A program made the position numbers and the translations under genes. Below are positions 1,270 through 62,484 of a stretch of 64,000 bases of DNA, one piece after another. A model generated the notes under the pieces. It was not told the DNA's origin, did not search any database, and was given only the letters and a program-made list of their open reading frames with translations. Position 1 is the first letter of the stretch, and each line of letters opens with the position of its first letter. Location: contig JAWKSP010000001.1 in NCBI GenBank assembly GCA_041389025.1, positions 2 to 64,001 on the forward strand. Direction: 5' to 3'. The stretch is from Minisyncoccota bacterium (GTDB taxonomy: Bacteria; Patescibacteriota; Minisyncoccia; Phycocordibacterales; UBA918).

Positions 1270-4200
1270 TTAATTTTCAAGTGGTGGTATATCTTCATTA
1301 TTTTCTTTTAATTCATCTAACTTTTCCTTCCCTCCTTCCTCTTTTACTTCTACTTCTTTTTCTGACTCTATTTTTGGACTTTCCTCTTTTACTTCTATAT
1401 TTTCTATATTATTTATTTCTTCATCAACCTCATTCTTACTGATAGGAATATTGTCCTTTCCTTGTCCGGTATCAATTTTGTTTTGTCCTACATCACTATC
1501 TTGTGTCGGACTTTTTTTATTAGTATCTACTTCTAAGGTGGAAGTCGATTCACTTTCCTTAACTTCTATTTCTGGATTTTCAACCATACCCTCACCGATA
1601 TAGTTGTCAGTGACATTACTTGTACTACTGGTACTACTGGAATTATTTATATCTGTACCAACCTCATCACCATCCACTACTTCTTCATCTACATTTTCTA
1701 TGTAATCATCTTCCTTTTTATTATCATTATTACCAACTTCTTTATCTTCTGTTTTTTGATCAACTGATTCACTATCACCAGAAGACTTGTTTGTTTCTAC
1801 CGTACCATTATCCTGTGACTGGCTTTGTTCTAATAATTTTCTTAAATCATCACCATCCACACACACTCCATCCACACACAACTCATCTTTAACTTCTACC
1901 TTATCTGCTTTAAGTTTTAAAACTGACAATACGCCGTCAACAAAATTATTTGCCAATTGTACCAGTCTCTCCCAAACTGTTTCCTCAGATACACCAACCG
2001 TACTACTAGCACTAGCTTTTAGACCATCAATAACTGCCAACTGAATGTCATCTATATATCGATGTCTTATATCAACAAAAACAATCGCCTGCCCAACATT
2101 AACTATTTGTCCGTTTTCAATTACAACTGTCTGACTTGATTTTTTAGCTAGTTGCGCCAACGCTTCTAACTCATCTTCATACAATACTATAGCTTCTGTT
2201 TCTAAGTCTTCATTTTCATAATCAGAGTGGACACATTCTGCCTCATCAAAATTGCCGCCGCCGCTGTTGTAGCAACCATCATTTTGTTTTGGATCATTTT
2301 GTTTTTGTGGCACAAATACTGAATCAATTAGATCATCACCAAACTGATTTATATAGGTTTTAGAGTAAGCTTTAGTTTCATCAAAGTCTTCCAACGCCAC
2401 ACCAATAATACGTCCGGTAGAAGTAGCTTTCATCGCCACTCCAGGAACAGAAGAAAGCATAAGTTCATCACCAGCCTTAATTTCTCCATTTTCGTTGGAG
2501 AGTTTTATTGGTACACGACCAGATAAAGCCACTGGATAACCAGTCTCACCTTTGTTTAAAGACCGATCATCAAAACCAAGTAAGAGCCCTGGTTTAGTTG
2601 AGACTACTCCGATAATTTTATTTTTGTTATCACTATCAGCTCTACCGATAGACAACCCACCTTTAGTGTAAATAACATCACCTGGCTCAAGTATCTCCTT
2701 AGAAAAATACATTTCTGCCAAGTCAGAGTTGCCGGTATGATATGAAACAGCTGAAATCCGTCCGGTAGTGGAAGCATTACAGGAACCATCATTATCAACA
2801 CAAATACCCCCATAACCAACCTGAATACCGGCGTTTTGAGTAGTGGTTCCATTACCAATAGTAAGCATACCGTAAGGATCAACGGTAAACATTGAGGTAC
2901 CGGCGTTTTGTAGATCAATAAACTTAGAAGCGGTAGTAGAAGAAAATGAACCGCCACTGTTACCAAAATTCATCAATAAACCGGTGCCGGTAAAAGCTGA
3001 TGTGTCTTGGAATAATTTTAATAAAGCAGCACTGGTAATAGTGGATGAGTAACCACGAATCGCATTTCCTTGTGTACTTCCTCCTGTTTCAGCAAATACA
3101 CCGGCTGGTTCATAAGAACCTCCCGCGTCCCCAGAAGTTACTCCACGCACACCAAAAGTACGAGCAAAGCCGGACAAAGCAGTATTCTCACCAAGAGTAT
3201 TTGTCCCTTCGTCAGTTTGCACCTCAAGACCCCTAACAATATTTCCATAACTTGTACTATCATTGAGCCTAAGCATACTACCCACCATAGTAGTAGTAGC
3301 CGTGTTAGTGGCATATATATATGAACGATTAGCGTACTGAATTGCACTGGCAGTATTGTTGGTAAAGCTAAAATACTGATCAAGACCAGCAACCCCAGCT
3401 TCAGAGTAATTCAATTTTTCAATTGCTAAACGCGCCTCTGGTGTAGTGGTACCAATTCCAATGTTGCCACTTGATAAGGTAGTACCAGTACCATCTATTC
3501 CAGTACCGAAGATTAGGTTGCCGATATTTAGTTGGTTTGAACCGGTAGTGGAAGCAATATCTACGTCGTAACCGATGACGATGTTGTTAGCGCCGGTGGT
3601 TAGGTTGTCGGCGGCTTGATAACCAAGAAAGATATTGTTGGAAGCTCCGGTTTGTGCAGCATAGCCGGCGCGGTAACCGAGAGCGGTGTTGTTGACGGCT
3701 TGGAAGATACTTCCTCCATAGAAAGATTCGGCTCCGACTAAAACTGATGAGGTGGATTGTATATAAAGACCGGTTGAATAACCGATCATTTCGTTGTAAT
3801 TGCCGGTGTTGTTGTACCCAGAAAGACGACCTATAAAATTATTAGACGTACCGGTATTGTTATACCCAGCGCTTTGCCCATAAATATTATTACTATCTCC
3901 AGTATTGTTTGCTCCAGCACTGGCGCCAAAGATATTATTGTTGGCACCAGTATTGTTGGTACCAGCAAAATATCCAAATATATTGTTTGATAAACCAGTA
4001 TTATTCAACCCAGCTGAAGCTCCGATATAATTATTATAATCAGCATCGGTAGTAGAAGCATAACGACCAGCTTCATAACCAATCGCCACATTTACTAAGG
4101 TTTGGTTATTAAAGGTTGCACCAGCATTTTGACCAAACAAAATAGACCCGTTAGTACTAGAAGCGTAGAGGTAATTAGTACCACCAAAAGCTAAGTATGA

Positions 4201-6123
4201 TTGAGAGCCTAATCCTAAGTTGGTACCATCAAAAGTAAGGTTTGAAGAATCAGTCACACCAGTACCTCCACTATTAGTAAACAACAACCGGTTAGCAGTG
4301 TATGAAGAAATAGTGTCAGTGAGTCCAAGGAAAGTACCGTCTCCCAGACCTAGTCCGGAAGTCGAGATCCAGTCGGTGCCGGTGCCAGTACTGGAGAGGA
4401 TTTGACCTGCGGTGCCGGAGGCGTTGGTAGAGTCAAAGATAGCTCCGGTAATAAAAGTATCTCCAACAACTGTAAGTTTTGAAGATGGTGTAGTAGTACC
4501 AATTCCAATATTGCCACTTGATAAGGTAGTTCCGGTACCATCAATACCGGTACCGAAGATTAGGTTGCCGATATTTAGTTGGTTTGAACCGGTAGTGGAA
4601 GCAATATCTACGTCGTAACCGATGATAATGTTGTTAGCGCCGGTGGTTAGGTTGTCGGCGGCTCGGTAGCCAAGAAGGATATTGTTGGAAGCTCCGGTTT
4701 GTGCGGCATAGCCGGCGCTGTAACCGAGAGCGGTGTTGTTGACGGCTTGGAAGATTGTCGTACCAGCTCCACCACGGAAGGCTTGACCTCCGATGACAAC
4801 TGATGAAGTAGCTTGGAGGTTAAAACCAGTTTGGTAACCAATCATTTCGTTGTAATTGCCGGTATTATTAAGACCAGCCATATAACCAAACAGATTGTTA
4901 TTGATACCAGAATTATAAAAACCGGCACTTCTACCAATTATATTATTATAAGAACCCGTGTTGTTATAGCCAGCATATTGACCTATAAAATTGTTGCCAC
5001 TAAATAAAGTAGTGGAAGAAGCATACCTTCCTGCCTCAAAACCTAAAGCCACGTTATAGGTAGTGTTAGAGTCAAAACTAGCTCCAGCATTTTCTCCAAA
5101 GACTATAGAGTCATTAGTGGAAGAAGCATAAAGATAACGAGTGCCATTCCAAGCAATACCAGTAGTGGTACCAAGACCGAAATTTGTACCATCGAAAGTT
5201 AATGCTTCATCATCAGTTACTCCATTGGCTCCACTATTAGTAAACAACAACCGGTTAGCAGTGTATGAAGAAATAGTGTCAGTGAGTCCAAGGAAAGTAC
5301 CGTCTCCCAGACCTAGTCCGGAAGTCGAGATCCAGTCGGTGCCGGTGCCAGTACTGGAGAGGATTTGACCTGCGGTGCCGGAGGCGTTGCTACTATCTGC
5401 TAAAGTGCCAGCTATAGCTGCGTTGCCAGTAATAGTTAAATTACCATCAAGGTAAGAGTTTCCAACTACCGTAAGTTTATTATCTGGTGTGGTAGTAGCA
5501 ATTCCCACATTTCCATTATTTAATATAGTAAACATCTCGGTTGCACCACTAAACAAACTTATGAGTTTACCGGCACCGTTTTGAATTATTGTAAGTATGG
5601 CAGAACTACTAGTTGCTTCCATTATATCGCTATCGTCAGATCGTAAAAAAGAAGTAGTAGCTAAACCAGCAAAAGTATTTGCTGTCTCGGCCACAAATGC
5701 TGCTGGCACCGCACCCAAAACTTTTCTTGGACTCATTTCTCCATCCCAAGCCGGAGTACTAGTTCCACCAATTTCTACTCCCAAATAAAGTGTTTGATCA
5801 AAATCTAATCCATCCAAAGAAGATACTTCTCCAAGCATTACTGAAAACAAACCATTAGTAACCGAGACTTGATTCCCTCCCGTTCTTGCCTCAGACCAAA
5901 TAGCAGTTGAAGTTGCAGCAGTGCTTGAAGATAAGAGCCAGAAGTTCATATTGTAATCACCATCTGCCACTGCCACACCAGAAGAATCGGTAAGTTTTCC
6001 TTGATAATTTATTTGTTTATTAAATTGGGCTTGAGTGGAAAAAGTAGAAAATATAAAAACCAAAGTCAGCACAAATGTGCTTATGATTGAAAATTTTATT
6101 TTGTTTTTACGCAAAATTTTCAT
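1270..6123 (-). CDS. Giant (1617 aa) secreted repeat protein with a fibre/adhesin-like beta-helical repeat region and an acidic low-complexity C-terminal tail.
   Basis: N-terminal signal peptide MKILRKNKIKFSIISTFVLTLVFIFSTFSTQAQ. A long region of ~14-residue Gly/Asn/Thr repeats (NN-x-I-G-x-x-AG-x-NNTG) resembles YadA-head or tail-fibre repeats. Two large internal protein repeats are present (..SNASGTAGQILSSTGTGTDWISTSGLGLGDGTFLGLTDTISSYTANRLLFTNSG.. appears twice). The C-terminal ~220 aa are D/E/K-rich low complexity. Confidence 0.75.
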   Translation of the reverse strand: MKILRKNKIKFSIISTFVLTLVFIFSTFSTQAQFNKQINYQGKLTDSSGVAVADGDYNMNFWLLSSSTAATSTAIWSEARTGGNQVSVTNGLFSVMLGEVSSLDGLDFDQTLYLGVEIGGTSTPAWDGEMSPRKVLGAVPAAFVAETANTFAGLATTSFLRSDDSDIMEATSSSAILTIIQNGAGKLISLFSGATEMFTILNNGNVGIATTTPDNKLTVVGNSYLDGNLTITGNAAIAGTLADSSNASGTAGQILSSTGTGTDWISTSGLGLGDGTFLGLTDTISSYTANRLLFTNSGANGVTDDEALTFDGTNFGLGTTTGIAWNGTRYLYASSTNDSIVFGENAGASFDSNTTYNVALGFEAGRYASSTTLFSGNNFIGQYAGYNNTGSYNNIIGRSAGFYNSGINNNLFGYMAGLNNTGNYNEMIGYQTGFNLQATSSVVIGGQAFRGGAGTTIFQAVNNTALGYSAGYAAQTGASNNILLGYRAADNLTTGANNIIIGYDVDIASTTGSNQLNIGNLIFGTGIDGTGTTLSSGNIGIGTTTPSSKLTVVGDTFITGAIFDSTNASGTAGQILSSTGTGTDWISTSGLGLGDGTFLGLTDTISSYTANRLLFTNSGGTGVTDSSNLTFDGTNLGLGSQSYLAFGGTNYLYASSTNGSILFGQNAGATFNNQTLVNVAIGYEAGRYASTTDADYNNYIGASAGLNNTGLSNNIFGYFAGTNNTGANNNIFGASAGANNTGDSNNIYGQSAGYNNTGTSNNFIGRLSGYNNTGNYNEMIGYSTGLYIQSTSSVLVGAESFYGGSIFQAVNNTALGYRAGYAAQTGASNNIFLGYQAADNLTTGANNIVIGYDVDIASTTGSNQLNIGNLIFGTGIDGTGTTLSSGNIGIGTTTPEARLAIEKLNYSEAGVAGLDQYFSFTNNTASAIQYANRSYIYATNTATTTMVGSMLRLNDSTSYGNIVRGLEVQTDEGTNTLGENTALSGFARTFGVRGVTSGDAGGSYEPAGVFAETGGSTQGNAIRGYSSTITSAALLKLFQDTSAFTGTGLLMNFGNSGGSFSSTTASKFIDLQNAGTSMFTVDPYGMLTIGNGTTTQNAGIQVGYGGICVDNDGSCNASTTGRISAVSYHTGNSDLAEMYFSKEILEPGDVIYTKGGLSIGRADSDNKNKIIGVVSTKPGLLLGFDDRSLNKGETGYPVALSGRVPIKLSNENGEIKAGDELMLSSVPGVAMKATSTGRIIGVALEDFDETKAYSKTYINQFGDDLIDSVFVPQKQNDPKQNDGCYNSGGGNFDEAECVHSDYENEDLETEAIVLYEDELEALAQLAKKSSQTVVIENGQIVNVGQAIVFVDIRHRYIDDIQLAVIDGLKASASSTVGVSEETVWERLVQLANNFVDGVLSVLKLKADKVEVKDELCVDGVCVDGDDLRKLLEQSQSQDNGTVETNKSSGDSESVDQKTEDKEVGNNDNKKEDDYIENVDEEVVDGDEVGTDINNSSSTSSTSNVTDNYIGEGMVENPEIEVKESESTSTLEVDTNKKSPTQDSDVGQNKIDTGQGKDNIPISKNEVDEEINNIENIEVKEESPKIESEKEVEVKEEGGKEKLDELKENNEDIPPLEN
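3440..3708. repeat. Intragenic DNA repeat copy 1 (~269 nt, ~93% identical to 4487..4756).
   Basis: Direct comparison: the ggtgtagtggtaccaattccaatgttgccacttgataagg...gacggcttggaagat block recurs 1047 nt downstream. Confidence 0.8.
4225..4427. repeat. Intragenic DNA repeat copy 1 (core 4268..4427 is 100% identical to 5231..5390).
   Basis: A 160-nt exact repeat (ccactattagtaaacaacaaccgg...gcggtgccggaggcgtt). The plus-strand ORF-track artefacts 4220..4405 and 5141..5368 share an identical C-terminus, which confirms it. Confidence 0.85.
4487..4756. repeat. Intragenic DNA repeat copy 2 of 3440..3708.
   Basis: Same as above. It encodes the duplicated GIGTTTP..NLTTGANNI[IV]IGYDVDIASTTGSNQLNIGN protein segment. 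Confidence 0.8.
5188..5390. repeat. Intragenic DNA repeat copy 2 of 4225..4427.
   Basis: See above. Offset 963 nt. Confidence 0.85.
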
Positions 6124-44400: not shown

Positions 44401-44475
44401 TAAGTAAAGAAACGAGCGCAGCGACTATTCTGAACTTATGTCAGAATTTGTTCTGTCCTTGGGCAAATTCTGACC
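44401..44475 (+). repeat. Structured repeat family, copy A (solo unit)
   Basis: taagtaaagaaacgagcgcagcgactattctgaacttatgtCAGAATTTGttctgtccttgggCAAATTCTG. 9-bp stem with a conserved loop. Related to copies B and D. Confidence 0.65.
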
Positions 44476-45144
44476 CCCTGTTTGTAAAATTACTACAAAC
44501 TCCCCTTTTTGTTTAACCGGCTCCTCGGTCAAAATATTCAAAAGCTCAGTTGGTGTACCCACCAACATTTCCTCATGCAACTTAGTGAGTTCACGTGCTA
44601 ATACCACCTTCCCCTCAGGATTTGTTTTTACTAGTGCTTCTAAAGTTTTTAAAATACGGTGAGTAGACTCAAAAAAAATAGTTGGTTGCGGAAAGGTCGC
44701 GAGACTTTTTAAAAAAGTCTCGCCACCTTTCTTCTGTGGCACAAACCCCAGAAAAGTAAATTGATTGCCAACAATACCAGCAATTGAGAAAGCTGCCGTC
44801 ACCGCTGACGCTCCAGGTATAACATCTATTCGCGCGCCCGCTATGCGGGCGCGCGAGACCAACATCACCCCCGGATCACTCACCCCTGGCGTACCAGCAT
44901 CGCTCACAAGTGCTATATTCTTCCCCTCCCCTAAATCAGTCAAAATCGCTTCATGCACCTTCTCACTAGTATGCGCATCATAGCGCTTCATTGTCGTCTT
45001 GATATCGTAGTGCGACAAAAGTTTACCGGTCACTCGCGTATCTTCACATAAAACATAATCAACCTCACCCAAAATACGAATAGCCCGCAAGGTAATATCT
45101 TCCAGGTTTCCAATCGGTGTCGCTACTATATATAGTGTTCCCAT
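44425..45144 (-). CDS. rsmI: 16S rRNA (cytidine1402-2'-O)-methyltransferase RsmI
   Basis: GTLYIVATPIGNLEDITLRAIRILGEVDYVLCEDTRVTGKLL, tetrapyrrole-methylase fold. The last 17 codons are encoded by repeat element A (see repeats). Confidence 0.8.
   Translation of the reverse strand: MGTLYIVATPIGNLEDITLRAIRILGEVDYVLCEDTRVTGKLLSHYDIKTTMKRYDAHTSEKVHEAILTDLGEGKNIALVSDAGTPGVSDPGVMLVSRARIAGARIDVIPGASAVTAAFSIAGIVGNQFTFLGFVPQKKGGETFLKSLATFPQPTIFFESTHRILKTLEALVKTNPEGKVVLARELTKLHEEMLVGTPTELLNILTEEPVKQKGEFVVILQTGGQNLPKDRTNSDISSE
44826..44860. repeat. Perfect GC-only 12-bp inverted repeat inside the rsmI coding region
   Basis: tcgcgcgcccgc-tat-gcgggcgcgcga. It encodes SRARIAGAR in an otherwise ~30% GC genome. 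Confidence 0.6.
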
Positions 45145-45205
45145 AACCAAGCATGGTAACAGAAAACCTAAAAAAAGAAACCGAGCGCATGCGCCCGGCA
45201 AAATT

Positions 45206-53800: not shown

Positions 53801-53820
53801 TTTGTCCGCGCTCTAGGATT
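53801..53820 (-). repeat. 20-nt direct repeat of the tRNA-Ile 3' end (att-like partial duplicate)
   Basis: tttgtccgcgctctaggatt matches ttagtccgcgctctaggatt at 54170-54189 (19/20). Confidence 0.6.
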
Positions 53821-53896
53821 AAATGAAGAAAGGAGTATAACGACTATTCTGAATTTATGTCCCAATTTTGTCCTTTCCTAGACAAAATTGCTGGAC
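53821..53896 (+). repeat. Structured repeat family, copy B (type 1)
   Basis: aaatgaagaaaggagtataacgactattctgaatttatgtcCCAATTTTGtcctttcctagaCAAAATTGctgga. Confidence 0.65.
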
Positions 53897-53952
53897 GAAC
53901 AGACTCTAAAATTACATAAAACTTTTGAGATATTTTGTCGTTTGCGTAATTT

Positions 53953-54030
53953 TAAATGAGCAAATGATCAAAGACCATATTGCGAATTTAGTTCCGAATT
54001 CTCCCCTTCCTAGGGCGAATTCTTGGAACA
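53953..54030 (+). repeat. Structured repeat family, copy C (type 2)
   Basis: taaatgagcaaatgatcaaagaccatattgcgaatttagttccGAATTCtccccttcctagggcGAATTCttgg. Confidence 0.6.
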
Positions 54031-54173
54031 GGTTAAGTTCTCACACGGTTTTCAAATAATCCAGCCAACCCTCAAGTATCGTAAACATCGACTTGTTCCT
54101 CCCTATGGTCGGAAACGGAAAAAATGCTACACGCATTTTTTAGCTCGCGCGGACGCAAAAGTCCTCCCCTTAG

Positions 54174-54247
54174 TCCGCGCTCTAGGATTCGAACCTAGGA
54201 CCTTTCGAGTATCAGTCGAATGCTCTAGCCAACTGAGCTAAGCGCGG
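54174..54247 (-). tRNA. tRNA-Ile (anticodon GAU). CCA not encoded.
   Basis: Manual fold: acceptor CCGCGCU/AGCGCGG, D-arm GCUC-AGUUGGCUA-GAGC, anticodon arm UUCGA-CUGAUAC-UCGAA, variable loop AGGUC, T-arm CUAGG-UUCGAAU-CCUAG, discriminator A. Confidence 0.85.
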
Positions 54248-54391
54248 ACTAAGGGGAGGACAAACTAAAACCTCTCTTTAAGTGACCGCTACTATAGCAG
54301 AAAACAAAGAAAAATGTAAGAGTCTCGCATATAAAAATCAAAGGCCTAAAGCATTATAGCAATAGGCCCTTTTGCAAGATAGAAAGATAAA

Positions 54392-54598
54392 TCAATATTT
54401 TCTACCCACCTTGCAATAGTCAACATAATTTTTTTTATTTTTGCCGAGTAATAACAAAACACCCGGCAAGATTAAAAACAAACCTGACAGCTTTATCAAC
54501 AAAAGCTCTAAGTTTGTTAGTTTGTTTGCTGGATCGTCTCCTAATAAAATGAGACAACCCAAAATAAAAAGTACCCCAACTGCGATTTTCATTTTCAT
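54392..54598 (-). CDS. Possible small 2-TM membrane protein
   Basis: 68 aa, hydrophobic. Confidence 0.3.
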   Translation of the reverse strand: MKMKIAVGVLFILGCLILLGDDPANKLTNLELLLIKLSGLFLILPGVLLLLGKNKKNYVDYCKVGRKY

Positions 54599-54705
54599 AT
54601 CAATCTCCAGTATTTAAAGGTGTATACATTAAATCATATTTAATATGTATTGTCAAATGTAAATAGCCTTATTTTGCACGCACTTCATGGGGTATAATTA
54701 TACTA

Positions 54706-55071
54706 ATGAAACAATACAAAATACTGCTAGCTCTGCTTGCTTTGCCACAATTAGCCTTTGCTCAAGCCTCCCTGCAAACTTTCATCCCAAACCTAGTTAA
54801 ATTTGTCAGTAATGTTTTAATTCCTTTCCTTTTTGCGATTGCCTTTTTTATTTTTGTTTTTGCTGCTTTTAAATACTTTGTTTTAGAAAGTGCCAATGAA
54901 GAAGGTCGCGAGAAAGCCAAAAACCTTGCCCTTTACACCATACTAGCCTTCCTTTTCTTAATAATATTTTGGGGATTAATAAATGTTATCGCTAATTCTG
55001 TTGGTCTACAAGGAACCGACCAGCCCTGTCCTGATTATATAATGACAATAGATCCAACCAAATGCCCATAA
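54706..55071 (+). CDS. Small secreted/membrane protein with signal peptide plus two TM helices (VirB2/TrbC-pilin-like topology, speculative)
   Basis: MKQYKILLALLALPQLAFAQA signal sequence, two hydrophobic helices, C-terminal CPDY...CP. Confidence 0.4.
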   Translation: MKQYKILLALLALPQLAFAQASLQTFIPNLVKFVSNVLIPFLFAIAFFIFVFAAFKYFVLESANEEGREKAKNLALYTILAFLFLIIFWGLINVIANSVGLQGTDQPCPDYIMTIDPTKCP

Positions 55072-55101
55072 AAAATATCCCAGTCATATTGACTGGGACT
55101 A

Positions 55102-55647
55102 TCATGTAGGTAAGTCTAGCTCTTCGCTCAACTCTTTGTATACCACTTGATTATTTTTATCTCTTTTACCTAAATAAACGTCCCATACCAACTTCTCTTC
55201 TTTAAGTATTCGAGGAAGAAAAATTCTATCCACCGGTAATAAGTTTAAATTCAAAATATCATCCGGCGCAAAAAAATGTGGTGTTCGCATTTCTTTTTTG
55301 CCTTGAGGTATTCCCTTGTACTTGATAAGAGTGAAGAAATAGACAGTCATGTCAGCTTGGCTATCCTCACTATCAGGCCAAAAGAAATTTATTTTTGCTA
55401 CCAGACACAAATCCTCTTCATACGCCCTAACCCCCGACTCCTCGAATAGTTCTCTTATAGCAGTTTGCAACAAACTTTCATTTGGTAACTTTTTACCACC
55501 ATAACCGTTCCAGACATTTGCGCTGTTTTTAAGCTGGATTCCTTGCTTGTGGATATTACTTACCTTCTGCGCCAAACAAACTCTTCCTCTTTCATCCAAT
55601 AAATAAACTACCGTGGCCAATTCTGTCTTAGCATTCATTGTATTCAT
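55102..55647 (-). CDS. NUDIX hydrolase
   Basis: Nudix box GGKKLPNESLLQTAIRELFEESGV. Confidence 0.7.
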   Translation of the reverse strand: MNTMNAKTELATVVYLLDERGRVCLAQKVSNIHKQGIQLKNSANVWNGYGGKKLPNESLLQTAIRELFEESGVRAYEEDLCLVAKINFFWPDSEDSQADMTVYFFTLIKYKGIPQGKKEMRTPHFFAPDDILNLNLLPVDRIFLPRILKEEKLVWDVYLGKRDKNNQVVYKELSEELDLPT

Positions 55648-55704
55648 AGCAAAATCCTCCTTCAGACTCTTCTTTGCTTAGTATACTTTTATACGACAAT
55701 AAAG

Positions 55705-55740
55705 AAAAGGCACCCTGCTTCGCGTGGTGCCTTTTCTTTT
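55705..55740 (-). terminator. Terminator hairpin just downstream of the 16S rRNA 3' end
   Basis: aaaaggcacc-ctgcttcgcgt-ggtgcctttt. On the minus strand it is followed by ttttctttatt. Confidence 0.55.
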
Positions 55741-57199
55741 AGACAAAACTCTCTTTTGTCTTATCCTTAAAGGTCCGGTCTTTCCCTGGGGTCTGATACC
55801 ATTTCAGAGAATTGAGTATCATCTCTCGTTGCGTGCTCAATTGATACACACAACATCGACCAATTAGCTGTCATTGCAGTTCTGTTACCAGAGTGCGACA
55901 ACGTGTCCAATTGGAATTAATCCACGACCAGCTTCCGCTAGCCGTGCCTTGTTACGACTTAGTCCTTGTTATCGAGTTTACCGTCGGCCCACGCTAGGTG
56001 GGACTTCGGGCACTCCCGACTCCCCTGACTTGACGGGCGGTGAGTACAAGGCTCGGGAACGTATTCACCGCGGCGTTGCTGATCCGCGATTACTAGCGAT
56101 TCCGGCTTCATGAGGGCGAGTTGCAGCCCTCAATCCGAACTGAGGATGGTTTTATTAGGATTTGCTCCACATTACTGTATTGCGTCCCGTTGTACTACCC
56201 ATTGTATCACGTGTGCAGCCCAAGGCATCAAGGGACATGCTGACCTGGCGTCATCCTCACCTTCCTCTCCCGTGAGGGAGCAGTCTCGTCTGACACTTAT
56301 AACAGACAACGAGGGTTGCGTTCGTTTCCCCACTTAAGGGAACAGCTCAAGCCACGAACTGACGACGGCCATGCATCACCTGCCATACACCCTCGAAGGC
56401 TTCTTCGGTTTCCCGAAGCGTGCAGTATGGTTTCTAGCCTTGGTAAGGTTCTTCGCTTAGCTACGAATTAAGCCACATGATCCACCGCTTGTGCGAGCCC
56501 CCGTCTATTCCTTTGAGTTTTAAGCTTGCGCTCGTACTACCCAGGCGGTCTGTTTAACGCGTTAGCTTCGCCACTAAGAGGGTCGATACTCCTAATAGCC
56601 AACAGACAGCGTTTAGGGCGTGGACTACTCGGGTATCTAATCCGATTCGCTACCCACGCTTTCGTGCCTCAGCGTCAAGAATGTGCCAGTAAGCTGCCTT
56701 CGCATTTGGTATTCCCCATGATATCAACGGATTTCACCCCTACACCATGAGTTCTGCTTACCTCTCACACCTTCTAGTTATACCGTTTCGAATGCGGCTG
56801 TAAGGTTGAGCCCTACAATTTAACATCCGACTAATATAACCGCCTACGCACCCTTTACGCCCAGTAAATCCGGATAATGCTCGGGGCCTCTGTATTACCG
56901 CTCCTGCTGGCACAGAGTTGGGAGCCCCTTATTCATGAGGTAACGTCAATAAACTTCCTCCCTCATAAAAGGTGTTTACGTCCCGAAGGACTTCATCCAC
57001 CACGCGGCGTCGCTCCGTCAGGCTTTCGCCCATTGCGGAAGATTCTCGACTGCAGCCTCCCGTAGGAGTATGGACCGTGTCGCAGTTCCATCGGTGGGGG
57101 TCAGGCTCTCACCTCCCCTAGCCGTCGTAGCCTTGGTAAGCCGTTACCTTACCAACAAGCTGATAGCCCGCAGGCCGTTCCAAGAGCGATAAATCTTTA

Positions 57200-57513
57200 C
57201 CCAGCCCTACTTTTTATCTTCAAGCCAACTGGTCTCAATTCTTTTTTTGAGACCTTGTATCGCACTACCATGTTGCTTAAGTTTGTTTTCACGAACTCGT
57301 GCATCACGTTCATTACGATAAGCTTCTGCGTATATCAAAATCCATTTACCTCGCTCTCTCCTAGTAGCTTTATTACTATTAGAATTATGAGAATTTAAAC
57401 GATTTCCTAAATTCTTAGTGAAACCAATATAAATCTCTTTTGTAAGTGAGTGTTGAATCAGATAAACAATAAACATTACCTTGATTGTATCAAAGATAAA
57501 AAGTAGAGCTGGG
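57200..57513 (-). other. Intervening sequence / intron-like insertion in the 16S helix-10 (V2) region, closed by a 21-bp perfect helix
   Basis: Stem strands CCCAGCTCTACTTTTTATCTT (57493-57513, rRNA sense) and AAGATAAAAAGTAGGGCTGGG (57200-57220) pair over 21 bp. They enclose 272 nt that carry an ORF. Confidence 0.7.
57207..57476 (-). CDS. GIY-YIG nuclease-domain protein (homing-endonuclease-like) encoded inside the 16S insertion
   Basis: MFIVYLIQHSLTKEIYIGFTKNLGNRLNSHN fits GIY-x10-YIG...R...H...N. AAGG lies 3 nt upstream of the ATG. Start is taken at M16 of the track ORF 57207..57521. Confidence 0.65.
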   Translation of the reverse strand: MFIVYLIQHSLTKEIYIGFTKNLGNRLNSHNSNSNKATRRERGKWILIYAEAYRNERDARVRENKLKQHGSAIQGLKKRIETSWLEDKK

Positions 57514-57789
57514 ACCATCAAGTATTATTCCGACTTTCGCCGGGTTATCCCTGACTCTTGGGTACGTACCTACGTGTTCCTACCTCGTCTGCCATGAATC
57601 TAAATTCATTCGACTTGCATGCCTCATCCACGCCGCCAGCATTCATCCTGAGCTAGGATCAAACTCTAATTGAAGACAGGTACTGAAAGAAAAAATCTTT
57701 CTGTGTATCTGCGTCTTCTGAGCAATGCGCTTGTACTATTGCGCGCTCGAAGAAGACGATTTACCTAAAGGATAAGACAAAAGAAAGCT

Positions 57790-57865
57790 AAATGAAACAA
57801 GGAGTGAAACTCCTATGTTGAATTTACGTCTCAATTTTTCCTTTCCTAGAAAAAATTGCTAGACG
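57790..57865 (+). repeat. Structured repeat family, copy D (type 1), in the 16S leader
   Basis: aaatgaaacaaggagtgaaactcctatgttgaatttacgtctCAATTTTTcctttcctagAAAAATTGctaga. Confidence 0.65.
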
Positions 57866-57900
57866 CAAACACATTTAGAAATTTTTGTCTTAAAAATTGT

Positions 57901-57978
57901 GCTGATGCATTAAATGAACAAATGTCCGAAGGACATATTGTGAATTTACTTCTCAATTTTTTCCTTTCCTAGAAAAAA
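57901..57978 (+). repeat. Structured repeat family, copy E (type 2), in the 16S leader
   Basis: taaatgaacaaatgtccgaaggacatattgtgaatttacttctCAATTTTTTcctttcctagAAAAAATTGctaga. Confidence 0.6.
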
Positions 57979-58174
57979 TTGCTAGAAGGCTTATCACAAA
58001 TATTCATTCATTTAAAATGCTTACGTCATACATAATGTTGGGCATTATGTATGAATATTTAATTTTCAAATTTCTATGTTCCGTATTGGTGGTAATTCTT
58101 TTTTTCTATTAACCTTACTTTTTAGCAAAGTGCACAAAAGCAAAGTTACTTACCTCCAACGAACAGTGCTGAGC

Positions 58175-58202
58175 ATTATACAGATATAGAAGAATTATGC
58201 AA
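58175..58202 (-). promoter_or_regulatory. Candidate sigma70-type promoter for the 16S rRNA transcript (TTGCAT-N16-TATAAT on minus strand)
   Basis: Minus-strand sequence cTTGCATaattcttctatatctgTATAATgctc. It lies ~500 nt upstream of the 16S 5' end and downstream of the terminators of the preceding gene. Confidence 0.45.
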
Positions 58203-60732: not shown

Positions 60733-60883
60733 TTTTTCTCCTTTTCAAAGTTTCAAAGTTCTTCACGAGCTATTCTCGTGTTGGCAATCTTGTACCATAT
60801 TTTTTACAAAAATGCAAGCGTATGGTGTTTGAAATAGAAAAAAGCGGGATGTAAGCGTCCCGCTTTAGTTTTGCAAAATTTTT

Positions 60884-61318: not shown

Positions 61319-61443
61319 TTCAATACTCCTACTCAAATTAAAAAGTTGGCCTTCTATTTTATAACACATTTTTCACAAAAAAGCAAGAAAAACAGGTGTA
61401 ATGTTTCTACATCACACCTGTTGTTTGTAGTAGGACTAAAAGT

Positions 61444-62314: not shown

Positions 62315-62484
62315 TTAAATAACTCCTTCTTTGCAAAGAACACAAAAATAACTGTGTGCCAACCTTTTACCATATTTTTTACAAAAAAGCAACTATGTGG
62401 TGACAAAAAAACGTTGGCCGAATTACTGTGGCCAACGTTTTAATAATACTTATTATTTTGTTTGAAGAAAATTTCCGAAAATTT

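Follow-up and report, generated by a model that had tools for sequence, protein, structure and literature searches.

A two-hairpin repeat of about 78 nt, apparently undescribed, in the spacers of Parcubacteria/Paceibacteria-type bacteria

What are the similar hairpin-forming segments that lie beside the 16S rRNA gene, the tRNA-Ile gene and the end of rsmI in this 64-kb stretch of DNA (the window)? The original prediction described a five-copy repeat family and offered three identities, namely a lineage-specific rRNA/tRNA processing or antitermination element, a small MITE-like repeat, or an operator family. The family itself was borne out. A repeat search grouped exactly five direct copies, A to E, all on the minus strand, and a covariance model scored them at 68-98 bits. 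The same model found no sixth copy in the 64-kb window, the runner-up match scoring 13.7 bits, and a strict pattern matched B-E with 0.00 matches expected in shuffled sequence (Table 1). The predicted coordinates of A-D agree with ours, whereas those of E (57901-57978) are about 10 nt off its core. As the stable-RNA genes and rsmI all lie on the minus strand, the preferable reading of the unit is the reverse complement of the version first written.

Table 1. Positions of the repeat copies and of the neighbouring features in the window
Feature	Position	Strand	Evidence
Copy A	44401-44475	minus	covariance model 68.2 bits + fold
Copy B	53820-53897	minus	covariance model 97.9 bits + fold
Copy C	53953-54029	minus	covariance model 87.0 bits; fold z-score -3.8
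Copy D	57789-57865	minus	covariance model 87.6 bits; leader alignment A5
Copy E	57911-57988	minus	covariance model 93.3 bits; leader alignment A5
tRNA-Ile 3'-end duplicate, 17 nt exact, AATCCTAGAGCGCGGAC	53804-53820	minus	exact-match search
tRNA-Ile(GAT), upstream of C and B	54173-54247	minus	ARAGORN; Rfam 72.2 bits
16S rRNA gene, downstream of E and D	55910-57674	minus	Rfam SSU_rRNA_bacteria 1361.5 bits
16S promoter TTGCAT(58202-58197)-N16-TATAAT(58180-58175)	58175-58202	minus	read from sequence; alignment A5
rsmI ORF, TP_methylase domain	44425-45201	minus	ORF list; Pfam PF00590 1.7e-34; C-terminal comparison

Every copy folds into two adjacent hairpins in a unit of about 78 nt. Hairpin 1 comprises GUYC, a conserved AG bulge, a covarying stem of 9-10 bp, a purine-rich loop (usually CUAGGAAnGG) and the return strand. 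Hairpin 2 has UAAAU/AUUUA, then an internal loop (UC/UC) and 4 bp of covarying stem, and its apical part is variable. One hairpin per copy had been predicted; it corresponds to the first, and the second (TAAAT..ATTTA) had been missed. The claim that stems differ between copies while remaining complementary was confirmed in the folds and in the covariation test, with 96.1% of cells paired, double-sided changes in 21 of 25 pairs and a covariation value of 0.494 against 0.147 in shuffled data (0 of 500 shuffles reached the observed value). Slid controls were at most 48% paired, and RNAalifold independently gave the same two hairpins. The 63 copies outside model building were 93.5% paired, and the closing stem also covaries in copies outside the search pattern (TAAGT/ACTTA, GAAGT/ACTTC, AAAAT/ATTTT and TGTTT/AAACA). 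With compensatory pairing exceeding both the shuffled and the slid controls, the repeat is a generic structured nucleic-acid element. The arms covary rather than being conserved in sequence, which argues against an operator family, that is, a protein site in double-stranded DNA.

The window copies differ in detail. Copy A belongs to a diverged subtype, in which the AG bulge is absent, the loop is CCCAAGGACAGAA and the closing stem of hairpin 2 is TAAGT/ACTTA. Copy B has a type I hairpin 2 and the loop AGUCGUUAUACUCC. Copies C and E are of type II, with apical parts GGUC-UUU-GAUC (a fully paired stem-loop) and GUCC-UUC-GGAC, respectively. Scanning of the window against Rfam 15 at gathering thresholds returned only the 16S and tRNA genes and none for the repeats, and permissive scans of both repeat regions gave sub-threshold chance matches only.

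Does the element serve the rRNA and tRNA operons? As predicted, D and E are located downstream of the TTGCAT-N16-TATAAT promoter and ahead of position 57674, where the 16S gene starts, and B and C lie 3' of tRNA-Ile(GAT). Four of the five window copies therefore flank 16S and tRNA-Ile, and tRNA-Ile-linked copies recur in loci L048 and L009. However, neither OLB19 (L048), a close relative with a 16S gene 96.8% identical to that of the window, nor L009 carries D and E, yet both retain the promoter, the leader and the leader-trailer processing stem (alignment A5). Copy D lies directly 5' of the processing-stem strand, outside the stem itself. Matches to boxA are at chance (37 versus 41.8 expected, 0 of them in the 16S leader). 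More than 90% of the copies elsewhere adjoin protein genes, and most copies abut ordinary housekeeping genes, against the suggested association with stable-RNA genes. Comparison with the boxA/boxB/boxC leader elements was rejected on the conserved L048 and L009 leaders and the boxA count. The element is not a required part of the 16S leader, and a lineage-specific boxB-like processing or antitermination element is very improbable.

D and E are probably insertions particular to this lineage, placed in the 16S leader immediately outside the leader-trailer processing stem. Relative to OLB19 and L009, copy D is a clean insertion of about 79 nt: alignment A5 reads GTGTTTG[CGTCTAGC..CATTTAG]CTTTCTTTTGTC in the window, TTATTTAT|CCTTTCTTTTGTC in L048 and AAATTTGT|AATTTCTTTTGTC in L009. 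No target-site duplication was found at D, as comparison of the filled window site with the two empty sites revealed no duplicated bases. Copy E together with 26 nt upstream (TAAATGAATGAATATTTGTGATAAGC) replaces a hairpin region of about 33 nt in OLB19.

At the tRNA-Ile site, a 17-nt duplicate of the tRNA-Ile 3' end abuts the 3' end of copy B (2 exact matches versus 0.00 expected), and the duplicate and the intact gene bracket a segment of about 350 bp containing C and B. Partial tRNA-Ile copies likewise follow the element in L048 and L009. The orthologue of copy B in OLB19 (L048 1177-1254) shares this junction; the two sequences are separated by three double changes, all compensatory. C and B would occupy a hot spot at the tRNA-Ile 3' end. 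As for copy A, the prediction that it supplies the last codons and the stop of rsmI was upheld: the ORF enters the copy for 16-17 codons, the 5' two-thirds of the copy being translated as C-terminal codons, and stops at TAG (44425-44427) inside hairpin 2. In L012 and L055, with whose orthologues the RsmI C-terminus was compared, the orthologues of copy A are flanked by rsmI and the gene for the same small membrane protein. Copy A may have lost its spacer and become fused to rsmI.

The search of relatives showed that the element is not specific to one lineage. Pattern scans recovered about 150 copies, almost all in Patescibacteria (CPR) contigs and spread over many MAGs and metagenomes; viral contigs lacked it. 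The 65 genome loci held 56 true matches, all in Patescibacteria MAGs, and the covariance model gave 74 matches in 65 genome loci and 75 further in metagenome contigs. Each genome has few copies, roughly 5-15 as estimated from a census of 8-20-kb loci. The family is apparently undescribed and widespread in Parcubacteria/Paceibacteria-type (CPR) bacteria. Its neighbours are diverse housekeeping genes, such as those for S19, S14, L11, RecR, DnaG, GyrA, FtsZ, SecY and ABC transporters, with no transposase, integrase or reverse transcriptase among them (562 ORFs of the first loci; 46 neighbours by Pfam).

Orientation follows no rule: among 142 distinct copies, 31 were tandem-sense, 35 tandem-antisense, 19 convergent and 16 divergent. 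Relative to GC skew no orientation bias was found (37 versus 25, a small sample with a weak skew signal from 8-kb loci). In the flanks, T stands at -1 in 43 of 75 cases, a weak composition bias, and no fixed tetranucleotide was found in the copies examined. At its 3' end (UCAUUUA) the element is often in contact with a start codon or with the stop codon of a convergent gene. A gene boundary lies within 10 nt of the 3' end in 49 of 128 cases and of the 5' end in 3 of 115, and the side closer to a gene is the 3' side in 70 cases versus the 5' side in 28 (p=2.6e-5). Fifteen convergent genes terminate inside the element, and can end in its TTAAATGA.

Comparison of orthologous sites revealed both gain or loss and strong conservation. 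Upstream of S19, some clades carry the element and others do not; 151 kb of sequence surrounding S19 in three further clades held none, although the promoter and leader of S19 are conserved there. Copies that are nested or chimeric are present in L064, L013, L043, L020, L050 and L063, and there are arrays with duplicated flanks, among them one site with a third, diverged copy. Flanking direct repeats of 11-12 nt or longer are confined to a minority of the copies, where they are segments of 17-63 nt of the neighbouring gene. The element is inherited vertically at fixed sites, and from time to time it is gained or lost precisely as a unit, with neither terminal inverted repeats (TIR) nor target-site duplication (TSD). 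S19-linked orthologous copies remain 88-100% identical where the S19 third-codon positions are 51-74% identical and synonymous sites are near saturation, and L027 and L063 have FtsX-linked copies that match at 78/78 positions versus about 80% in their flanks. Such conservation is far above neutral and not expected of a decaying selfish insert, and points to a host-level or cis constraint.

We propose, with a probability of about 0.5, that the five copies belong to a non-autonomous, structure-dependent interspersed family of about 78 nt in Parcubacteria/Paceibacteria-type CPR bacteria, analogous to ERIC, REP and bcr1. The element sits, in either orientation, in short transcribed spacers of core housekeeping genes, with its AU-rich 3' end typically at an ORF boundary. 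It may persist because its self-folding leaves the neighbours undisturbed, and a start codon could directly abut it because the lineage scarcely uses Shine-Dalgarno (SD) sequences: an SD-like 4-mer precedes 24 of 258 confident starts (control 14), and the 16S 3' tail has no CCUCC. The pairing would be kept by selection on a single-stranded form. Nearly all pairs are Watson-Crick (2674, versus 25 GU and 44 AC) and the copies are oriented at random, so that ssDNA or RNA of both strands is as likely a form as one sense RNA.

A host-functional cis-acting RNA module, occasionally copied to new genes, is possible though clearly less probable. Such a self-folding 5'-UTR or intergenic element would mark ORF boundaries without SD pairing, possibly as a processing or punctuation site releasing leaderless or nearly leaderless mRNAs, as a stabiliser, or as a regulator site at the AGGA-type loop. 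The purifying selection on orthologous copies, which includes loops and internal loops, is consistent with this role, as are the location within transcribed spacers of essential operons, the missing SD/anti-SD pairing, and the 3' ends 0-9 nt from the start codons of S19 (about 15 loci), S14, L11, RecR, EF-P, PilB-like, FtsX-like and ABC genes. However, half of the copies, equally well conserved, run antisense to the genes on both sides, and close relatives do without the element at the 16S and S19 sites. For a sense-RNA structure the share of G-U pairs (0.9%, fewer than A-C) is unusual; moreover, the loop sequence varies among subfamilies and there is no Rfam family.

The Watson-Crick-only covariation and random orientation also suit a DNA-level site that acts single-stranded. 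It could serve recombination or attachment, or be the terminus of a mobile system that depends on hairpins (HUH or Xer/integron-like), with the folded strand as the substrate. The extrahelical AG bulge is conserved, rearrangement junctions fall at the hairpin-1 loop, and the element abuts duplicated target segments, namely 3' parts of tRNA-Ile in the window, L048 and L009 and the ends of genes in L018, L019 and L117. Nevertheless we consider such a site unlikely: flanking duplications are missing at most copies, the copies examined show no fixed flanking tetranucleotide and, in a small sample, no replication-strand bias, a match to the attC R-box consensus is absent, viral contigs are without the element, and no recombinase or transposase lies nearby.

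Still less probable is a family of independent small-RNA genes, multicopy paralogues with their own promoters. Synteny is conserved in both orientations, a small GC hairpin with a T-run often follows type II copies, and a minority of copies have a weak TTYRGAGY box 4-8 nt upstream. However, no conserved upstream promoter was found, copy D was inserted as a bare 79-nt core, and about 25 copies run into a start codon, which leaves no space for a terminator or promoter.

How does the proposed interspersed family compare with known systems? The MITE-like repeat was the nearest of the three original options, and there is evidence of past or present mobility (D/E absent in OLB19 and L009, the S19 site variably filled, nested copies). 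However, the class (including ERIC, Correia and RUP) was rejected, as the 5' GTTCCAG.. and 3' ..TCATTTA ends are not reverse complements in any of 61 aligned copies, the inverted repeats being internal and in two separate hairpins, and a TSD is lacking at D. Several observations weigh against the proposed family itself. The available loci hold no mobilising enzyme, autonomous relative, target sequence, TSD or TIR, the copies are few, orthologous copies exceed neutral DNA in conservation, and start codons could adjoin the 3' end for a functional reason, not through spacer loss.

Like the element, ERIC are low-copy, structured, found in either orientation, better conserved across genera than spacers, and variable in presence; for this likeness Wilson and Sharp are reportedly a further source, from 2006. 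ERIC have terminal inverted repeats, one long imperfect palindrome, and TA flanks or a target duplication, whereas the element has two unrelated hairpins, no TIR or TSD, no sequence similarity and another host phylum. ERIC are transcribed intergenic repeats of about 100 nt, structured and of low copy number, in either orientation and with presence/absence differences between relatives (PMC3184786). REP/REPIN are hairpin-defined extragenic repeats thought to act as single-stranded hairpins (PMC3116915), and share with the element compensatory evolution, the lack of classical TIR/TSD and frequent pairing. However, REP are GC-rich palindromes of 20-40 nt in hundreds of copies that flank a RAYT (Y1 HUH) gene, and the element, with 78 nt, two different hairpins, conserved loops and few copies, misfits them in unit size and copy number. 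About 1 Mb of loci showed nothing resembling a RAYT gene (562 ORFs of the first loci; 46 neighbours by Pfam).

The ends of IS200/IS605 resemble the element in having subterminal hairpins without TIR or TSD, and their orphan stem-loops (e.g. in Borrelia) show compensatory changes beside gene 3' ends. Their signature is a conserved target of 4-5 nt beside the left end and a lagging-strand template bias, against T at -1 in 43/75 and a GC-skew orientation of 37:25 here, from a small sample with weak skew in 8-kb loci; neither tnpA nor tnpB was seen in the loci examined. In an integron attC site a single hairpin has R''/R' boxes (RYYYAAC ... GTTRRRY) at its base and stands beside promoterless cassettes. 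This candidate was rejected, since the base of hairpin 1, GTYC../..GRAC (GTTCC/GGAAC), misfits GTTRRRY and the neighbours are core housekeeping genes.

The bcr1 repeats of the Bacillus cereus group are alike in size (about 80-155 nt), transcription, fold-preserving compensatory changes and a distribution that differs among related strains, but have flanking direct repeats of 5 bp, a duplication not found at copy D. Rickettsia palindromic elements, for which the source is said to be Ogata in 2000, are likewise small palindromic repeats in or near essential genes of a reduced genome and can join an ORF. They are inserted in frame and translated through, whereas the element usually ends the ORF that enters it, as in rsmI and the 15 convergent genes.

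A repeat search of the window, which belongs to an AT-rich genome of the CPR type, returned a single direct-repeat family of five members, the copies A to E of the original prediction. The covariance model, run on the window with filters off, recovered only these five copies, the next-best score being 13.7 bits. Their predicted surroundings were also recovered: E and D are preceded by a TTGCAT-N16-TATAAT promoter, C and B are located 3' of tRNA-Ile, and the rsmI reading frame enters copy A. The natural C-terminus of the RsmI orthologues (loci L012 and L055 from other genomes) is 16-17 residues short of that of the window RsmI. No 23S gene was found within the window, indicating that the rRNA operon is broken up. 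The gap of about 1.7 kb between 16S and tRNA-Ile (54250-55910) holds a 68-aa ORF in addition to the two genes listed in the table.

Coordinates of the element copies and surrounding features in the window
Feature	Position	Strand	Remark
Copy A	44401-44475	minus	end of rsmI
Copy B	53820-53897	minus	3' of tRNA-Ile
Copy C	53953-54029	minus	3' of tRNA-Ile
tRNA-Ile(GAT)	54173-54247	minus	
T4SS-pilin-like small protein	54706-55071	plus	between 16S and tRNA-Ile
NUDIX hydrolase gene	55102-55647	minus	between 16S and tRNA-Ile
16S rRNA gene	55910-57674	minus	
16S insertion of ~300 nt with a 104-aa GIY-YIG protein	57207-57521	minus	~model position 165-472 of the window copy
Copy D	57789-57865	minus	16S leader
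Copy E	57911-57988	minus	16S leader

Folding of each copy on the minus strand, which is the strand of 16S, tRNA-Ile and rsmI, revealed two adjacent hairpins. Hairpin 1 consists of GUYC, an AG bulge, a stem of 9-10 bp, the loop CUAGGAAnGG and the return strand, and hairpin 2 of UAAAU, UC, a 4-bp stem, a variable apical part, the return strand, UC and AUUUA. The single hairpin proposed earlier corresponds to hairpin 1, hairpin 2 having been missed. In type I copies, hairpin 2 carries the conserved loop AGUCGCUACGCUC, whereas in type II copies, including C and E, the apical stem is fully paired. An A-like subfamily is devoid of the bulge, and several loop variants occur among the copies. RNAalifold yielded the same two hairpins.

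The proposed covariation of the stems was strongly supported. In an alignment of 61 copies, 96.1% of the cells were paired and 21 of the 25 pairs showed changes on both sides; the covariation score was 0.494 against 0.147 in shuffles, with none of 500 shuffles reaching the observed value. Sliding the partners lowered the pairing to at most 48%, and the 63 copies outside model building were 93.5% paired. Most copies were found with a search pattern that fixes CTAGGAA, TAAATTC and TCATTTA, so the invariance of these motifs is partly by construction, and variants do exist; in copies that escape the pattern, the closing stem of hairpin 2 covaries (TAAGT/ACTTA, GAAGT/ACTTC, AAAAT/ATTTT and TGTTT/AAACA). 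The pairs are almost exclusively Watson-Crick (2674, against 25 G-U and 44 A-C), which leaves the wobble-pair test without a usable signal and unable to name a transcribed strand. This purity argues against a structure selected solely as one sense RNA; the selected form might instead be single-stranded DNA or RNA of both strands. An operator family, as had been suggested, is not borne out, as covarying arms do not fit a double-stranded site.

Several other readings of the sequence were rejected. Matches to the 16S of the organism itself, direct or complementary, were no longer than 7-9-mers, giving no sign of mimicry or pairing. Stops in all six frames, expected of a stop cassette, were present in just 51 of 124 copies compared to 30% of shuffles, the sole constant stop feature being the terminal TTAAATGA (TAA/TGA) of the antisense strand. 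The open frame over hairpin 1 (..PGICPRKGxNSELNSE*) tracks nucleotide conservation and shifts with the stem covariation, and is thus not a peptide gene. An upstream box or a pseudoknot was likewise considered; a TTYRGAGY box is present in a minority of copies, has no consistent pairing partner and does not belong to the core.

A scan of one genome per species with a pattern derived from copies B-E gave 65 loci. The full two-hairpin unit was found in 56 of them, all 56 from Patescibacteria MAGs labelled Paceibacteria, Parcubacteria, Kaiserbacteria, Nomurabacteria, Elulimicrobium and 'Saccharibacteria' (TPA records); the remaining nine are chance matches in unrelated phyla. The covariance model, built from 61 copies, identified 74 copies in genome loci and 75 across 80 metagenome loci. 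The element is therefore not lineage-specific, which had been suggested as one possibility. Viral contigs gave only chance matches at 23 bits and no copy, which leaves no link to phages. Rfam holds no family for the element in gathering or permissive scans, and no description of it was found in the literature on Patescibacteria repeats, structured RNA and leaderless mRNA. The 16S of the 'uncultured Candidatus Saccharibacteria bacterium' records (L003/L009/L039, CAYFXS01, and other TPA MAGs) is 92% identical to that of the window and of Parcubacteria OLB19, and these binned assemblies appear to have been wrongly labelled as Saccharibacteria.

Comparison of related loci revealed gain and loss of copies. 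The loci L048 (Parcubacteria OLB19) and L009, with 16S identities to the window of 96.8% and 91.9%, share the 16S promoter and leader with the window, as well as the leader strand of the processing stem, but are devoid of D and E. Against these empty sites, D is a clean insertion of about 79 nt with zero duplicated bases, and E together with 26 nt upstream stands in place of a small hairpin region. The upstream promoter and structured leader of S19 are conserved in eight loci; the element lies directly ahead of the ATG in four of them, and the other four, including OLB19, carry a 10-nt or unrelated short spacer. The covariance model found no copy in 151 kb of element-less S19 loci. The absence of D and E from the OLB19 and L009 leaders, together with neighbours that are core protein genes, contradicts the view that the element is specific to rRNA.

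Rearranged copies were also found. In L064, an A-type copy is nested within hairpin 2 of another copy; in L013, L043, L020 and L050, element ends adjoin the loop and the 3' arm of a second hairpin 1; and in L063, a 95-nt insertion separates the two hairpins. At a minority of sites, the sequence 3' of the element is duplicated upstream of it: the 17-nt 3' end of tRNA-Ile in the window, 33-38 nt of the tRNA end and trailer in L048, a tRNA 3' half in L009 and, in L018, L019 and L117, the ends or starts of genes. A diverged third copy is present at one of these sites, which argues for independent events at one place. Partial tRNA-Ile 3' copies lie downstream of the real tRNA in L048 (1290-1400, minus) and L009 (3790-3860, minus); they share an insert of about 55 nt in the T-loop (..GACTGAAAGRARTATAAAAAYRGAAAT..CTTGTGGTGC), which was not seen in any other retrieved locus.

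In its behaviour, the element resembles small structured interspersed repeats such as ERIC, REP/REPIN, bcr1 and RPE. We therefore file it as a variant of this known repeat class: it is probably non-autonomous and structure-dependent, moves occasionally and is otherwise inherited vertically. The suggestion of a MITE-like repeat holds as far as an interspersed structured repeat is concerned, but the defining traits of MITEs, terminal inverted repeats and target duplication, are missing. The R-box of integron attC sites is unmatched, and REP elements, with regard to RAYT and copy number, look a poor fit from the loci covered. For an IS200/IS605-type origin, the flanks showed a weak composition bias (T at -1 in 43 of 75) and no fixed tetranucleotide as a target, and the small sample gave a weak strand signal, which neither favours nor disfavours such an origin.

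The surroundings of the copies were analysed on loci of 8-20 kb around pattern matches, with genes called by a longest-ORF heuristic. Orientation relative to the neighbours is random among 142 distinct copies (31 tandem-sense, 35 tandem-antisense, 19 convergent and 16 divergent). The neighbours include the ribosomal proteins S19, S14, L5, L2, L11 and L9 as well as SecY, GyrA, DnaB, DnaG, FtsZ, ATP synthase, RecR, EF-P, SHMT, PilB-like ATPases and ABC transporters. Inspection of the neighbour genes in the examined loci revealed no transposase, integrase or reverse transcriptase. Clustering of 562 ORFs gave no recurrent partner protein, only ribosomal and housekeeping clusters recurring, and the genes between inverted copies (L9, PPIase, L27, NusG and similar) do not suggest a composite transposon. 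The five window copies are all on the G-rich strand, yet the ratio by local GC skew is 37:25 across loci; no replication-strand bias stands out in this small sample with its weak skew signal, and the idea was dropped. Neither inspection by eye nor a scan gave support to an outward-facing promoter within the element's 3' end or to a fixed one upstream.

Orthologous copies are far better conserved than neutral DNA. The S19-linked copies are 88-100% identical, compared to 51-74% at S19 third-codon positions, and the copies of L027 and L063 are identical at 78 of 78 positions with flanks of about 80%. Copy B differs from its OLB19 orthologue by three compensatory double changes, and orthologous copies in antisense orientation are conserved as well. 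Together with gain and loss, this indicates that the element is dispensable at a given site yet constrained where present. Such strong purifying selection is the main observation left unexplained by an interspersed repeat, and it keeps alive the reading of the element as a functional RNA module, which we regard as rather unlikely. As an interspersed repeat, the element might persist because it folds on itself and is harmless beside genes that do not use Shine-Dalgarno (SD) pairing.

The two ends of the element differ in their relation to genes. A gene boundary falls no more than 10 nt from the 3' end (UCAUUUA) in 49 of 128 cases, compared to 3 of 115 for the 5' end, with median distances of 33 nt and 169 nt, respectively; the 3' side is the closer one in 70 cases versus 28 (p=2.6e-5). 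About 25 same-strand genes begin 0-9 nt past the 3' side, and 15 convergent genes terminate within the last bases of the element, which read TTAAATGA on the opposite strand. In L018 (6590-6860, plus), there are three tandem 83-nt units, in each of which hairpin 1, represented by its 5' half and loop (..CCCTAGGAAGGGG), is joined to AATAAT-ATG and an 18-codon hydrophobic ORF (MSKIFYSIGFLTAFGFTF*), so that the loop occupies the position expected of a ribosome-binding site.

A start codon abutting the element is not a problem, since these genomes hardly use Shine-Dalgarno sequences. An SD-like 4-mer was found in 24 of 258 confident starts (about 9%) against 14 in the control region, and the 16S 3' tail, GGAUUAAUUCC..., lacks CCUCC. 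No CCUCC was present anywhere near the 16S 3' end in the regions compared (window 55760-55930, minus; L048 2420-2650; L009 6250-6480). The lineage appears to start translation without SD pairing. Many genes of these genomes have a TATAAT-like box 3-17 nt ahead of the ATG.

The 3' junctions might arise by loss of spacer. Alternatively, the element could be a self-folding gene-boundary module peculiar to SD-less CPR bacteria, its exact 3' end joined to the first nucleotide of the ORF. On RNA it would signal punctuation or processing, with a cut directly after UCAUUUA producing leaderless mRNAs, or would provide a platform for ribosome loading; it might spread via an RNA intermediate. This would account for the precise junctions to start codons, for those at tRNA T-loop and anticodon-loop positions, and for the variable 5' 'leader' and duplicated target segments (L018, L019, L048 and L117), but we consider it improbable, more so than an RNA module in general.

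CPR/Patescibacteria genomes are regarded as streamlined and repeat-poor, and to our knowledge almost nothing is known of their RNA and regulatory biology. A conserved element inside essential operons is now defined; it has very strong covariation support, about 150 known copies and a covariance model ready for use, and it occurs in no RNA-family library or paper among those searched. If only selfish DNA, it would be a rare mobile element thriving beside essential genes of minimal genomes, and useful for telling strains apart. Should the purifying selection have a functional cause, the element could reveal how genes are delimited or expressed in an SD-less lineage. For annotation, the element accounts for the odd RsmI C-terminal tail, for unusual gene ends and for spurious small ORFs in these MAGs.

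Further features of these loci were observed. The 16S 3' end ...GUCGUGGAUUAAUUCCAAUUGG is followed by about 140 nt conserved in three genomes. The leader CUUUCUUUUGUCUUAUCCUUUAGG (57764-57787, minus) and the trailer CCUUUAAGGAUAAGACAAAAG (55762-55782, minus) are complementary over at least 15 nt, are conserved in L048 and L009 and presumably form the 16S processing stem. The unusual 3' extension is enclosed by this stem, with copy D directly outside. In these bacteria, a break between L2 and S19 divides the S10 operon (L025 1420-1660, minus; L073 1560-1786; L074; L077), and S19 possesses a TTGACT-N17-TACTCT promoter of its own as well as a leader of about 200 nt. This leader, a candidate ribosomal-protein leader or attenuator, contains the highly conserved blocks GTTCCAACCTCA and GGACGGCCGTTACCTTTCTTT along with a covarying hairpin, after which comes TTTATTCGTAT. 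The L5-S14-S8 spacer is likewise expanded and variable. The GIY-YIG insertion of the window 16S is missing from the 16S of OLB19 and L009 and resembles a mobile intervening sequence carrying an ORF of the homing-endonuclease type. Large near-identical direct repeats at 3439-5392 (270 nt at 94% and 216 nt at 91%, spaced about 1 kb, with shorter 63-nt repeats) probably represent a repetitive surface-protein gene or a gene duplication. In addition, a 46-nt motif (..ACCATATTTTTTACAAAAAWGCAAG..) occurs three times, 0.6-1 kb apart (60782-60827, 61351-61396 and 62357-62402), and may mark repeated promoter or regulatory regions.
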